A stretch of DNA of 63,864 nt, the filler included, from Lenisia limosa (lineage: Eukaryota; Protista; Breviatea): assembly GCA_001655205.1 (NCBI GenBank). It is 11 parts of 11 records of this genome, joined end to end, with 100 filler letters (N's around TTAATTAATTAA, not from the genome) between each part and the next. Parts side by side here need not be neighbours in the genome. Positions count along the whole stretch, not along the records: positions 1 to 7,960 come from LPNZ01008584.1; positions 8,061 to 12,124 come from LPNZ01006961.1; positions 12,225 to 37,465 come from LPNZ01010842.1; positions 37,566 to 38,663 come from LPNZ01000275.1; positions 38,764 to 41,970 come from LPNZ01008970.1; positions 42,071 to 44,095 come from LPNZ01006500.1; positions 44,196 to 50,791 come from LPNZ01001786.1; positions 50,892 to 55,901 come from LPNZ01011068.1; 3 more parts are not named here. The stretch is one strand, 5' to 3'. The position numbers and the translations under genes were made by a program. Shown here one piece after another: positions 367 through 63,864 of this stretch (positions are counted from its first letter, which is position 1; the number at the start of each line of letters is the position of its first letter). The notes beneath the pieces are model-generated. The model was not told the DNA's origin. It ran no database searches and saw only the letters and a list, made by a program, of their open reading frames with translations.

Positions 367-3300
367 GAGCAAGGCAAAAACTTCAGTGTCGACCTCAAAG
401 ACCTTAAGGTGGGCTTAATATACTGGCTGTGTGGACATACGATTCTTCTTCCTGATACAGTATTTTGAAAAATCGGGCCCATATTCTCTATACAGTTGAA
501 CACTACGGTAGAGTGACTGGCCTNNNNNNNNNNNNNNNNNNNNNNNNNNNNNNNNNNNNNNNNNNNNNNNNNNNNNNNNTGTTTGTTTTGTTTTACCAAC
601 CCTCGTGTGTTTTCAACCAACAGAGTTGATGGGGCTTTTTTGTTTCATAAATTTCCTTCATTTACCCCCCTCCCCCCACACCAGTTGGTCAGGGAGTTGG
701 GCAGCGGAGTTGGAGGGGCCGTGTCCCTAGTTCGACACGTGCCTTCTGGCAAAATGCTTGCTAAAAAGGTGAGGGAAGTTGATTATGGACATATTTGTCA
801 GCGCTTTGTTCTTTTCACTTCTGGGAATGTTTTTTCATATTATAGTTACAGCGATATTCATTTAACCCCGGTTTGTATTGCTTGTTTTTTGTTTTTGATT
901 TTGGTTTTTTGTTTTGTTTGGAGTTTCATATTATTCGGTTCATTCTTCATCGAAATTTCCTTCGTTTTGCCTCCCTCCATACGCTGGAGTGGTGGGATGC
1001 GGTGCTGCAGAAGCAAGACTGGCTTGGGTTTTATTTTGTTTTGTTTTCAACCCTTGTGTGTTGTCAGCCAACAAAGTTGATTTGGGTTTTTTTTTTTTGT
1101 TGACTAATTTTTCCAATTTTANNNNNNNNNNNNNNNNNNNNNNNNNNNNNNNNNNNNNNNNNNNNNNNNNNNNNNNNNNNNNNNNCGTGAGAGTGCAGGT
1201 GGTGAAGGAGCTGAAGGCGCTGTACGACTGTCAGGATGATCATATCGTTCAGTTCTATGGTGCTTTCAACACTGAAGGGTAGGCAGTCATCGACCGACTA
1301 TGGCATAATAAATCATTAATGAAGATAAAATTTATGAGAGTGACCCTTGCAGGTCTGTTGAGAAGCACGTGAAATGTCATCAATAATGCAAAATGAGATA
1401 TTTTATAAGTATACTATAGAGTGGAATCTTTTTTCCGTCCTTGTATCTTGGGCTTCACTTTGGTTCGAAAAAGACCGTTAAACTATTGATAATTATCGAG
1501 AACTCGGGAAATTCAGGACCAATCGGGAAATTCAGCGAACCAAAGTGAAGTCCTAGTTGCAAACATGCATTAAATTTATGAGATTGTAACCCTTGTAGGT
1601 CTGTTGAGATTGTGATGGAGTACATGGATGCCGGTACACTTTTGGACATTGAGGCGATGGGAGTTGTCATTCCCGAACCCGTAATTGCACGGGTCGCGGA
1701 GCAGGTTAGCTTGAACCACTTTTCTCACTTTGCTTGAAATTATTATGTGTGGGTTTTTTTTGGTTCATCTATTTTTTTTATATCTAATAAGTTGCAAGGA
1801 AGGAAATAATAATTTCGCTCTACTCTAGTATGCTCATTAAATCTCTCAGTTTGCATCAATAATGCTATTTCTTCGGTTTTGATCAGCCCCATGTTGACAC
1901 TTTCAGAGTCTCAAGGGTCTGGCTTACCTCCACCATAAACGCCACATCATTCATCGCGATATCAAACCCTCCAATATCCTCATTAACACCAAGGGTGAAA
2001 TCAAACGTAAGGGGGTGGGGGCTACTTCCCTTCTGTTTTGAGTTGAGTGTAACTGATTTATACACTATCGATGTCATTTTTTTGTTTTTATGTATTTTCT
2101 CACCAACTCCCCCCCCCCCCNNNNNNNNNNNNNNNNNNNNNNNNNNNNNNNNNNNNNNNNNNNNNNNNNNNNNNNNNNNNNNNNNNNNNNNNNNNNNNNN
2201 NNNNNNNNNNNNNNNTCAGCTAACTCCTGGGTCGGAACCGTTACATATATGAGTGTAAGGGGGCATGTTGTCTGCGAGCTATATCAATATATGCTGGAGA
2301 GGCACGCAGAAAGCTGTCTGCACAGGGTTGTAAGGCAAATGATCGGGTGAATTAATATTATACTATTATTCAATATCTCTTATAAGCGTGTTGGTGTGGA
2401 CGGCTTCGGCCAGAGGCATCCTTATTTTTATTTCTCATTGCTATATACTATATATTTACTAATATACATATGCAAGATACTATGGACGGCTTTGACCTGA
2501 TAGCACCATTTGTATCTCATTTCAACATAGGGCTTCACTTCAGTTCGAAAAATTCTGGTAAAATATCGATAGTTTTCGAAGATTATCGAGAGATTCAGTC
2601 TTTCTTCGAACCGAAGTGAAGCTTTATCTCTACGTCATTTGTTACCTTCATCCCTCTTCGTATATAAGCTTGAGAATGTTGACGGTTTCAGCAGAATACT
2701 TATTACCTCAAAAACCAGCCCTCTTTGTTGCGTATTTCACCGCCTCAAATACCAGTCCTCTTTGTTGCGTATTTCACACAATAACACCAACCCTCTTTGT
2801 TGCGTATTTCACACAATAACACCTGTGTAATAAGATTACAGATATTATATATTATACATACATAGCTATATGTTCGTCGGACACAAATACATCATACTAT
2901 ATTATATGTACTAAGTGATATGCAATAGATGTAATAGTATGTGGATTTATAGCGATGATACAATATGTATAAAACTGAGATAAAAAAAGTTTTTCTTGGT
3001 CGAAATTTCAAATAACACCGCAGCCGGAAAGAATCCAGGGAGACTCTCACTACCACATTGACAGTGACATTTGGTCTCTTGGGTTAACCCTGGTAAGGGG
3101 AGTTACAATTGTGCTCTGGTAGGGGGGCTATATTATATTATATACTGTACATACTAACATATATTATATCATATGATATAGTATATTACATAGTATATGA
3201 TATAATATATACAGTGACCGGATAAGTCTTGACCGATTTCCCTTGATAAATCACATAGCGTCAAGGCGTATCCCGGTTACTGTACATGCATACATATGTT

Positions 3301-4346
3301 ATTTTATTTTTTTGATATATATATATTTTTTTTTTATGGGGGGGGGGGGTNNNNNNNNNNNNNNNNNNNNNNNNNNNNNNNNNNNNNNNNNNNNNNNNNN
3401 NNNNNNNNNNNNNNNNNNNNNNNNNNNNNNNNNNNNNNNNNNNNNNNNNNNNNNNNNNNNNNNNNNNNNNNNNNNNNNNNNNNNNNNNNNNNNNNNNNNN
3501 NNNNNNNNNNNNTTCTTTACCGTTAATGGGGGTATCCATTGTTTTCATTGTGATTCACTTTGTAAAATATACTGGAATAATGTCAATCGAGAAATTCAGT
3601 CTTTTTTCGAAACGAAATGAAGGCCTATTTGCATACCTTGGATTGGGGTGAGGGCTCTTGTCTAGTACGTGATTGAACGCGCTGAGTCTTTATGCTAGTG
3701 CATCACGTACATTAGCCAGGATAAGTCTTGACCGATTTTCAACATAAAACCATTATGAAATCAGTCAAGACTTATCCCGGTCACTGTATGTTCTATTTTT
3801 TTTTCACAGTTGATTCTCACACCTCAGCTGCTTTCCTATATTGTGGAGCACCCGCCGCCAGCTCTCAATCCTGAGTTCTACTCTGCCGATCTGTGCCACT
3901 TCATTGCTCAAATGTTCGAAGGGTTCTTTTTTTTCATTCTTGCACAAACAACACATTTCTTTCTCTTTTATTATTTTGATCTCTTCACTGCATCACTTGA
4001 CATTTAAGGCTGAAAACCGACCCTGCCGAAAGAGCGTGTGCAACCGATTTACTGGAACATCCCTTCCTCATTAGGCATAGTGAAAAGGTTTGTCACCCCC
4101 CGAACCTCACCCCCCCTTCTCCCTCTTTGTTTTTGTTCAGAATTCATCATCCAATTTCACGGGTGTCCTCAAATGTCAAAAGAGTTGATTTTGGGTTTTA
4201 ATGTAAAATCACATTTCCATTAACGCCCCCCCCCCCCTCAGGTTGACATTAGCCCTTGGATTATTCAGCTCAAGGAAATGGGTCTCGGGTCGGAAGCCGT
4301 AACTGAGCAACTGACACAGCAGTTGCCAACGGTCCAACTTCCTTAA
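367..4346 (+). CDS. MAP2K: MAP kinase kinase (MEK1/Ste7-type), multi-exon, 5' end upstream of window or incomplete; one or more exons hidden in N gaps
   Basis: Spliced exons give [16 protein letters not shown] (G-loop), [106 protein letters not shown]; stop TAA at 4344-4346. Confidence 0.93.
515..684 (+). mobile_element. Acceptor-terminal intronic repeat, family I (gapped copy)
   Basis: CAACCCTCGTGTGTT..AACAGAGTTGAT..CATAAATTTCC..C-run-CCAG ends exactly at the acceptor of the LVRELGSG exon. Confidence 0.75.
921..980 (+). repeat. Intronic repeat family II (ATTCTTCATCGAAATTTCCTTCGTTTT-C-rich)
   Basis: Matches 9970-10004 (+) and 21097-21179 (-). Confidence 0.6.
984..1121 (+). mobile_element. 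Acceptor-terminal intronic repeat, family I (most complete left end)
   Basis: CTGGAGTGGTGGGATGCGGTGCTGCAG..GACTGGC..TTTTCAACCCTTGTGTGTTGTCAGCCAACAAAGTTGATTTGGG..AATTTTCCAATTTTA, then N gap before the next exon. Confidence 0.75.
1448..1555. mobile_element. hAT-type MITE family A
   Basis: TIR GGGCTTCACTTTGGTTCG / CGAACCAAAGTGAAGTCCTA, in a MAP2K intron. Confidence 0.8.
2371..2445 (+). repeat. Intronic repeat family D (ATCTCTTATAAGCGTG..GGACGGCTTCGGCCAGA..TTTCTCAT)
   Basis: Near-identical to 9199-9275; related copies at 14845-14897(-), 18793-18850(-), 44870-45005, 48357-48395, 48735-48790, 56950-57005. Confidence 0.7.
2528..2626. mobile_element. hAT-type MITE family A
   Basis: TAGGGCTTCACTTCAGTTCGAAAAA ... 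TTCGAACCGAAGTGAAGCTTTA. Confidence 0.85.
2712..2822. repeat. Intronic minisatellite, 3 units of ~37 bp (CCTCTTTGTTGCGTATTTCAC core)
   Basis: Directly visible tandem copies. Confidence 0.85.
3212..3282. mobile_element. Tc1/mariner-type MITE family C
   Basis: TA|CAGTGACCGGATAAGTCTTGAC ... TATCCCGGTTACTG|TA. Confidence 0.8.
3710..3786. mobile_element. Tc1/mariner-type MITE family C
   Basis: GGATAAGTCTTGAC ... GTCAAGACTTATCCCGGTCACTG|TA; left end degenerate. Confidence 0.75.
4176..4241 (+). mobile_element. Acceptor-terminal intronic repeat, family I (degenerate)
   Basis: AGAGTTGATTTTGGGTTTT..TTTCCATTAACG-C-run-TCAG abuts the last MAP2K exon. Confidence 0.6.
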
Positions 4347-4705
4347 TTGGTCCTGTGGGGTGAGTGTCCGTTTTGTGCGGCGTTTGGTGCTGGCATGTCG
4401 GGGTTAGCTTTTCGGTTAGTTTTATGTATTGTTTCTCTGCATCCCTCGCTTTGCCTACCCATACCTGAAGTGTAAATCTTCGCCAGGAAGAGAGTTGGTC
4501 AACAATAAACATACGCTGTGCATGTGTCGAATATGGCCTTTTTAATCATATTGTTTGTTATGATCATGTTATAATCTTGTAATCTTTAGGAAAAGCACAT
4601 AAGAAACTTTAAATGACCTTGCTGGTCTATAAAACCCGCAACTAAAAAAAAATTCCACCACTATGATGCAATAATTGTTTATTAATATGTCACTACTGTT
4701 AAAAC

Positions 4706-63473: not shown

Positions 63474-63551
63474 CAGTGACTGGGAAAAGTCTTGACCTAT
63501 TTTCCTTGGGAAATCATATAGCAAATCGGTCAAGACTTATCCTGGTCACTG
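63474..63551. mobile_element. Tc1/mariner-type MITE family C
   Basis: TA|CAGTGACTGGGAAAAGTCTTGAC ... GTCAAGACTTATCCTGGTCACTG. Confidence 0.85.
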
Positions 63552-63803
63552 CATGCGTTGATTGGTATTAGGTTTGAAAAAAACAAATGCATGAATTGAA
63601 TCAAAGACCAAGGGAAAGATTTAAATTATTGAGCGCTGTGCAATTATTTGAAAAACTAATTGCAAGATTTGAGGTGGGCCATATTGTAATGGAAATTCAA
63701 TTTCAGACCCTCTACTTTCAGCGTAGGAGTGGGGAGAATTTCGGGGTAACAAATATATACATATGGATACATTTATGGCTTCCCTATGATCCGAAAAAGA
63801 CCT

Positions 63804-63864
63804 GACTGGGCTTTGTTTTTGTTGTTATCAACCCTTGTGTGTTGTCAGTCAACAGAGTTGTTTT
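63804..63864 (+). mobile_element. Family I intronic repeat running off the window end
   Basis: GACTGGGCTTTG..TTATCAACCCTTGTGTGTTGTCAGTCAACAGAGTTG. Confidence 0.75.

Follow-up and report, generated by a model that had tools for sequence, protein, structure and literature searches.

A family of short non-coding repeats that runs into the 3′ splice sites of introns was characterized in a window of about 64 kb of DNA from Lenisia limosa, an intron-dense microbial eukaryote with GT-AG introns; "the window" denotes the whole stretch that was analyzed. The repeat has a length of roughly 130 bases and a conserved core of ~125 nucleotides (nt). The family is real and unusual: every copy detected is sense to its host gene, every readable right end meets an acceptor, and the 3′ part is retained while the 5′ part is frequently missing. 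It is a new variant among the mobile elements that carry splice sites. The best-supported reading, about as likely as not to be right, makes the element a branch-point/acceptor cassette, i.e., a non-coding mobile element that is templated by excised intron RNA and added to 3′ splice sites already in place. Statements on the whole genome refer to the level of contigs, and conclusions on mechanism draw on 12 copies and the contig data.

A preliminary description had claimed at least 11 copies. Family members were recovered at all 11 of these places by self-BLAST and a profile search of the window, and the profile added a twelfth, decayed copy at 32524-32566 (minus strand; 7.8 bits), which extends to an acceptor at 32481. 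The profile was built from ten copies scoring 29.6 to 92.9 bits, and these ten scores are not independent because the same copies had built the profile. The twelfth copy and that at 55008-55034 (12.2 bits) were outside the seed, and the top score over 20 locally shuffled windows was 6.0 bits. The median pairwise identity of the copies was 0.74 (34 pairs). Abundance was assessed with two public contig sets from one study, X1, which behaves as DNA (its kind is not on record), and X2, which is poly(A) RNA. At the 55481 copy, the summed X1 depth was 360,047 over the core, 60,710 over positions 55481 to 55489 and 397 over the first exon bases (4,705 contigs). Contig depth is not a copy number, and unique contigs had depths of 15 to 45; the depth ratio suggests ~10^4 copies, consistent with 12 copies per 64 kb, and the genome likely contains thousands of them. 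Six RNA contigs touch the element at a depth of 2 to 8. A metagenome scan with a 26-nt core motif detected no loci, and one with a 19-nt motif detected eight loci, none with family sequence outside the motif. Rfam produced no matches at gathering score over the window and eight chance-level matches on 900-1125. Folding of six copies indicated no consistent structure, with five folding no better than shuffles (z of −0.46 to 0.58) and one having a z of −3.22.

All 12 copies were sense to their host genes, as had been claimed for the core (P = 2.4e-4; eight genes, one verified by RNA and the rest modelled), and none was located in the ~15.8 kb outside gene spans. Each of the eight readable right ends met an acceptor, two by RNA and a transcript-derived protein and six by gene models. 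The first two are in the MAPKK gene. Copy 1 (502-684, +) forms the 3′ part of intron 409-684 and stops at acceptor 684, while copy 3 (4163-4241, +), which is cut at the 5′ side, stops at acceptor 4241 of intron 4088-4241; both were detected by profile, RNA and protein. A single RNA contig covers 683-768, 1186-1277 and 4240-4345, and the transcript-derived protein P0110 joins the MAPKK exons at the 684 and 4241 acceptors. Both AGs are, therefore, in use. The most complete copy, copy 2 (984-1185, +; donor 769), lies in the intron between and is readable to 1121. Its C-run and its acceptor fall within an assembly gap at 1122-1185, the acceptor being placed there because the gap also takes in 23 nt of the exon that follows (TMFRSDED). 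Three copies, thus, sit in introns that are removed from the MAPKK mRNA according to the RNA contig and P0110.

The acceptors of copy 4 (8171-8262, +; detected by profile and gene model) and copy 11 (56359-56490, +; intron 56279-56490 of a YeeE-type sulfur-transport gene) served as gene-model seeds, and position 56491 opens a Pfam Sulf_transp match at residue 2. Acceptors 27085, 48097 and 55481 were chosen by an ab initio model that had not been seeded with them. These terminate copy 5 (27085-27198, −; 5′-cut; intron 27319-27085, with a fitting phase), copy 7 (47912-48097, +; 5′ end intact, with a gap in the middle) and copy 10 (55481-55552, −; 5′-cut, with a near-consensus 3′ end). The 55481 acceptor comes from the model; the X2 contigs do not cover exon 55373-55480, and a search for a protein of this organism spanning the junction detected one unrelated repeat protein only. 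Copy 6 (32481-32566, −), which is decayed and contains a TC microsatellite, ends at a modelled acceptor taken from a first gene-model run together with the fit of the reading frame. That run was too permissive, and a second, stricter run was used otherwise. The exon after 32481 had no homologue in our searches, and its NPL4-like label was assigned by eye. Copy 8 (53556-53628, −) has an intact 5′ end and a 3′ end within a gap, a C-run at 53396-53404 and an acceptor at 53365 probably coming next. Copy 9 (55008-55034, −) is a short piece before a 10-N gap, and copy 12 (63797-63864, +) runs off the window and has its 5′ side joined to the cut end of a miniature inverted-repeat transposable element (MITE). 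The preliminary statement that the right end terminates at the AG of the next exon was not confirmed as worded: all eight readable ends run into the acceptor, but ~30 nt or more of non-family sequence separate the branch-like motif from the AG at 56490, at 32481 and probably in the 53556 copy. As a control, 39 intronic matches of six other repeat families were located 27 to 1255 nt from the next modelled exon (hand count, with duplicates across families dropped), distances that may be overestimated since the gene models still miss or misplace exons.

The 3′ end of the element is composed of an AG-free pyrimidine-rich stretch, a TTTTAC-like, branch-like motif, a C-run and CAG. A C-run of six or more was present in seven of the eight element acceptors and CAG in all eight, as compared with 4 and 58, respectively, of 104 host acceptors, indicating that the element normally brings a branch-like site and a C-run. 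In host acceptors the branch-like A is mostly positioned 9 to 10 nt before the exon (37 motif matches among the 104 acceptors). The last bases of the element vary: in 345 X1 contigs the sequence past the C-run becomes divergent, though C-rich (agreement 0.39), and a set of 60 contigs has CAG a few bases farther on. The proposal that the element donates the acceptor is upheld for the copies with a C-run but not for that at 56490, where the working branch and AG resemble host sequence. Host C-runs as the main insertion target were considered, and this candidate was weakened by their presence in only 4 of the 104 host acceptors.

The two ends of the element are not equally preserved. Truncation at the 5′ side affected 8 of the 11 copies that could be assessed, as against 0 of 7 at the 3′ side (P = 0.004), whereas two MITE families of the same window, A and B, were cut at the 5′ side in 5 of 32 cases (P = 0.001 versus the element) and at the 3′ side in 5 of 33. 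The X1 depth, compared at 90% likeness in two different copies, was 849 at position 1016 in the 5′ part and 28,764 at position 629 in the 3′ part. Copies were also found to be stacked. Among the X1 joints listed, 24 distinct ones were head-to-tail, one was a skip and none involved a change of strand. In the window, copy 2 is located directly behind a copy of family B, a diverged subfamily, that lacks its AG (917-983, +; self-BLAST and repeat-family comparison). Another family B copy (21097-21182, −) runs to a modelled acceptor at 21097 with a C-run before it, and a further one (9930-10004, +) lies between two plus-strand genes and has CCCAG at its end. Near the 5′ edge of the element, three of nine introns carried a decayed duplicate of their own acceptor (p of 0.003 to 0.009). 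These duplicates were at 47904-47923 (+; p of 0.004 to 0.009), at the 5′ edge of copy 7 and overlapping its CTCGAG left end; at 55568-55599 (−; 19 of 32 positions, p of 0.005), as a decayed branch and C-rich end before copy 10; and at 56311-56342 (+; 72% over 32 nt, p of 0.003 to 0.005), where the acceptor region 56465-56496 is duplicated together with six exon bases. Four query lengths were tried in this test, and the lowest p among 49 control introns, which included a few element introns, was 0.033. Target duplications of fixed length were absent from the introns tested: there were either none or repeats of differing length and place.

Irrespective of the route, the element has probably been added mostly onto acceptors that already existed. 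The sequence on its 5′ side is unique over 76 to 215 nt in eight of nine introns (repeat-free modelled host introns have a median length of 112 nt, n = 63), in agreement with the earlier remark that it fills only the 3′ part of unrelated introns. The exception is intron 8103-8262, which is filled entirely because its left half (8107-8160, −) repeats the right half in inverted orientation and with an internal deletion (score of 35.5 against that half; best of 500 shuffles, 26.0). Three element-free MAPKK introns match positions that we take to be those of human MAP2K1 introns (172/173, 231/232 and codon 341), and the window's MAPKK exons start at MEK1 residues 173 and 232 in the alignment. The exact human exon 2/3 boundary presumably lies after c.291. 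The intron of the 984 copy follows the codon aligned to MEK1 residue K97. As c.278 is assigned to exon 2 and c.293 to exon 3 of human MAP2K1 in one report (PMC8144646), this intron falls inside a 15-nt bracket that holds the exon 2/3 boundary and, hence, is at an apparently ancient position. A MEK1b form is described as lacking 26 residues of subdomain 5 (PMC8699841). The suggestion that the element takes over existing acceptors thus agrees with most of the data, including the unique 5′ remainders and the 984 intron, while two introns (56279-56490 and 32704-32481) look created.

A tentative form of the favored reading, which we regard as possible rather than probable, is a splice-defined retroposon. 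This would be a spliceosomal parasite with a 3′ end generated by splicing; it would be copied onto other 3′ splice sites, would have captured branch points and acceptors in several per cent of introns in at least two waves (families A and B) and would occasionally make a new intron. In the favored reading as such, each copy would be transcribed inside the host pre-mRNA, with splicing setting its 3′ end, so that neither a promoter nor a poly(A) tail would be needed. The 3′ end would then be joined or annealed at the start of another exon, either through reverse splicing into a junction already spliced or through priming on the acceptor, and a reverse transcriptase acting in trans would copy from the AG backwards and stop at variable points. 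The 5′ side would be joined to the end of the old intron, and in some cases a decayed duplicate of the former acceptor would remain before it; on the reverse-splicing route, reverse transcription and one-sided recombination would follow. As the exon boundary would be kept, insertion would be nearly neutral and repeatable at the same site. With a target inside an exon and duplicated bases starting with GT, a new intron could result. If intron RNA serves as the template and is copied from the AG onwards, one would expect a fixed 3′ end coinciding with that of the excised intron, a ragged 5′ end, placement in sense and within genes only, and stacking on older ends. Reverse splicing may favor positions that are already spliced (PMC3443670), and post-splicing activity of the lariat spliceosome has been described (PMC10996645).

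Several observations weigh against copying from intron RNA onto existing acceptors. Six of the eight acceptors come from gene models, and sense bias alone is weak evidence because another repeat of the window, family C, is sense in six of six cases yet lies mid-intron. The head-to-tail joints could be due to local slippage, and the 72-nt reference limits the joints that are visible. Five of the nine introns had no acceptor duplicate and a sixth gave a p of 0.019, while C-richness before the 5′ edge of the element was weakly raised (P = 0.013). Introns 409-684 and 4088-4241 (copies at 515 and 4176) are not at the positions that we assume for human MAP2K1. Intron 56279-56490 starts with bases matching 7 of the first 10 of the next exon, the highest value of 86 modelled introns (chance P of 0.007), and intron 32704-32481 with 8 of 10 (chance P of 0.0008; hand count, as the script had used donors 32703 and 32693). 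A mark of this type is what remains when an introner derives its donor from a duplicated target (10.1101/2022.06.06.494994, legend to Fig. 2B), and the near-copies indicate that intron creation may also occur. The left end CTGGAG of the 984 copy was examined as a possible duplicated exon start, but the P0110 exon starts T-M-F and fits at most two codons, so that support for this candidate did not exceed a weak hint. Neither a reverse transcriptase nor an RNA intermediate was detected within the 64-kb window, and the copier would have to pass the branch point. Furthermore, reverse splicing is considered very rare, and introns are also lost through the cDNA route (PMC3443670 and PMC10996645).

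A terminal-inverted-repeat (TIR) DNA transposon, as advanced in the preliminary description, would be a MITE-type introner with CTGGAG-Gn and Cn-CTCCAG ends that inserts at or near exon starts or in exons, supplies the acceptor, obtains its donor from the target duplication or the upstream intron and later loses its left part. We consider this unlikely, although parts of it fit. An inverted left end is present in the 984 and 8107 copies (each matching the right end at 9 of 11 positions) and, weakly, in the 47912 copy (7 of 11), and in the 8107 intron a deleted antisense half and a sense half form a fold-back; these features also tell against the RNA route. Further support comes from the two of nine introns whose start resembles that of the next exon, from the excess of CAG and from the C-runs, which show that the end is mostly element-borne, and the arrangement matches the splice-site recruitment depicted in Fig. 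2B of 10.1101/2022.06.06.494994. The claim of inverted ends did not extend to the other copies, left ends being absent in 8 of the 11 that could be assessed, while genuine MITEs sharing these introns retain both ends. Likewise, creation of the introns by such a transposon is plausible for some copies (56279 and 32704 starts), whereas the 5′-ragged and 3′-fixed ends are unlike those of the two MITE families. The listed joints included none between opposite strands, no duplication of fixed length was detected, no antisense copy was free-standing, no copy was intergenic and one host intron is at an apparently ancient position. No autonomous partner with the same ends was found within the window. 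Short paired ends are no proof of a transposase since fungal stwintrons are also reported to have them (PMC12403724).

Copying at the DNA level, in which another copy supplies 50 to 150 nt for the repair of breaks at G/C runs or acceptors (through ectopic gene conversion or microhomology-mediated repair) with local slippage and no RNA step, accounts for the polarity, the 5′ raggedness, the head-to-tail stacks and the junctions at short shared motifs (read by eye), and assembly gaps do cluster at G/C runs. This route needs homology at the target, yet a long C-run was present in only 4 of 104 host acceptors, and first entry into thousands of introns is, therefore, hard to explain; G-runs after donors are common, yet only a single antisense half-copy (8107) is located at a donor. 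We regard it as quite improbable. An ordinary interspersed repeat might also insert at random, with selection retaining only sense copies exactly at acceptors. A strong acceptor within an intron would indeed be harmful, and family C exhibits a sense bias without contacting acceptors. The ~121 modelled acceptors, however, offer a target of 1 to 2 kb on one strand, as against the ~15.8 kb outside genes on two strands, so that random insertion should have left roughly a hundred or more copies between genes, where none was seen, though MITEs occur there. Random insertion with selection fails because this neutral space far exceeds the acceptor target and holds no copy, making that explanation highly improbable and indicating that the element must be directed to exon starts.

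The movement of introns is a long-open question, for which reverse splicing or RNA-templated intron transposition has been proposed for decades on the basis of few cases. With ~10^4 copies landing on exon-intron boundaries, a single genome offers thousands of events that can be dated, and the predictions are sharp, namely, microhomology at junctions, a truncation profile and empty sites in relatives. The family also shows how a mobile element can hide from selection without making introns, by replacing the branch point and acceptor; such replacement would renew splice signals at intron positions that remain ancient. If true, a splice-defined retroposon would provide genome-scale evidence for mobility of the reverse-splicing type at existing junctions.

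Other repeats were present in the same window. Family C, a non-palindromic repeat of ~105 nt with a summed DNA depth of up to 242,644, was mid-intron and sense in six of six modelled genes, and is the second strand-biased family of the window. Its matches are at 2345-2448, 2480-2525, 9172-9278, 14828-14917, 18789-18889, 44972-45000, 48357-48385, 48704-48750, 54252-54292 and 56954-56998, the short copies beginning near the middle of the repeat. MITE A (~98 nt, palindromic, both ends kept) occurs in introns and between genes with ~30 matches, e.g., 21466-21561, 26532-26630 and 55144-55242. MITE B (~85 nt, palindromic) is at 3209-3285, 20416-20500, 20879-20963, 58494-58579 and 63471-63554, and is resembled by family F (164-261, 8745-8841 and 58761-58855). 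Open frames at 42292-43070 (−) look by eye like those of a tyrosine-recombinase element of the DIRS/Crypton type; Pfam gave no match, and a lead from the Atlas was limited to Phage_int_SAM_1 on 26% of a cluster (score of 0.85). A segment of ~1.35 kb between long inverted repeats (45721-47068; 45721-45819 versus 46956-47068), likely a DNA transposon derivative, contains a short lysine-rich frame with a GRG-repeat end at 46498-46860. The region 6900-7800 is multi-copy (DNA depth of ~350 to 460 versus ~30) and has a minus-strand open frame of 226 residues without a Pfam or Atlas match.

The genes of the window include, besides MAPKK, two of bacterial type with many spliceosomal introns, encoding glycine dehydrogenase subunit 2 (34910-37465) and the YeeE-type sulfur-transport protein (56105-57130). 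Long G-runs follow many donors, e.g., at 30548-30563, 35669-35684, 49826-49839 and 56564-56579, and most of the sized assembly gaps adjoin G or C runs. A CAT-repeat piece at 53415-53467, between two gaps inside the intron of copy 8, is identical to 53217-53267 and probably is an assembly misplacement. A 12-base spacer flanked by two runs of 44 N (8005-8016 and nine other places) marks joins of unknown size, across which order and distance are uncertain.

Comparison with known systems places the family between several of them. Short interspersed nuclear elements (SINEs) and target-specific retroposons lacking long terminal repeats have a fixed 3′ end, a ragged 5′ end, head-to-tail insertion into older copies and possible duplications of variable length. 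The family shares their fixed 3′ end and 5′ truncation (0 of 7 versus 8 of 11), their head-to-tail insertion and, possibly, their variable-length duplications but, unlike SINEs, has no A-tail and, by Rfam, no tRNA, 7SL or 5S head; its fixed end is a splice acceptor and its tail a C-run with AG. Acceptor donation of the Alu type is antisense and makes new exons. The short repeat SIRE of Trypanosoma cruzi is a donor of trans-splice acceptors in pyrimidine tracts. It is reported to supply a 3′ acceptor in the sense orientation, as does the family, a likeness of description, and differs in serving trans-splicing from intergenic sites of an almost intron-less genome rather than in cis-introns. SIRE is recorded as linked to VIPER (PMC3418195). 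The MITEs of the window are likewise short, non-coding, intronic and of very high copy number, but are palindromic, retain both ends and lie mid-intron or between genes in both orientations. Assignment of the family to MITEs or TIR transposons was not supported (inverted ends at 9 of 11 positions in 2 of 12 copies, 8 of 11 copies 5′-cut, no fixed-length duplication). Helitrons have a CTRR 3′ end and insert between A and T, and were rejected because the element's ends read CCAG or TCAG, the next base being T, G, T, C, G, G, A and G in turn. U12-type introns have an RTATCCTT 5′ splice site; these were also rejected, the host donors being ordinary GT sites and the resemblance of the element's end to a U12 branch site having been noted by eye only.

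Fungal introner-like elements are described in PMC3443670 and PMC10996645 as sense-only and gene-only, without a reliable TIR, with reverse splicing proposed and many events at positions that were already intronic. The family shares this placement and the lack of a reliable TIR. Those elements, as described there, are whole introns in tens to hundreds of copies, whereas here a partial 3′ cassette of ~10^4 copies is appended to an old intron; identity with a whole intron of stable fold was rejected, as the copies are not whole introns and five of six fold like shuffles. A literature search that included few subscription papers and no supplements, such as the introner family tables of two Gozashti papers, yielded no description of a repeat family that is restricted to the 3′ ends of cis-spliced introns already present. 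Introners of Micromonas, Aureococcus and dinoflagellates, in the accounts of 10.1101/2022.06.06.494994, PMC12130899 and PMC11282704, are high-copy, non-coding, sense and carry a 3′ splice site, as does the family, with 12 of 12 copies in sense and three in spliced MAPKK introns; two of nine introns here have starts that may reflect a donor derived from a duplication. According to the same accounts, introners reach near both splice boundaries, and the survey filters out similarity over a sub-portion of an intron as secondary insertion. The family, unlike introners, covers only the 3′ part, leaving a unique 5′ part in eight of nine introns, is 5′-cut, stacks and occupies at least one apparently ancient intron; since published introner pipelines discard partial-intron similarity, the pattern may be overlooked elsewhere.

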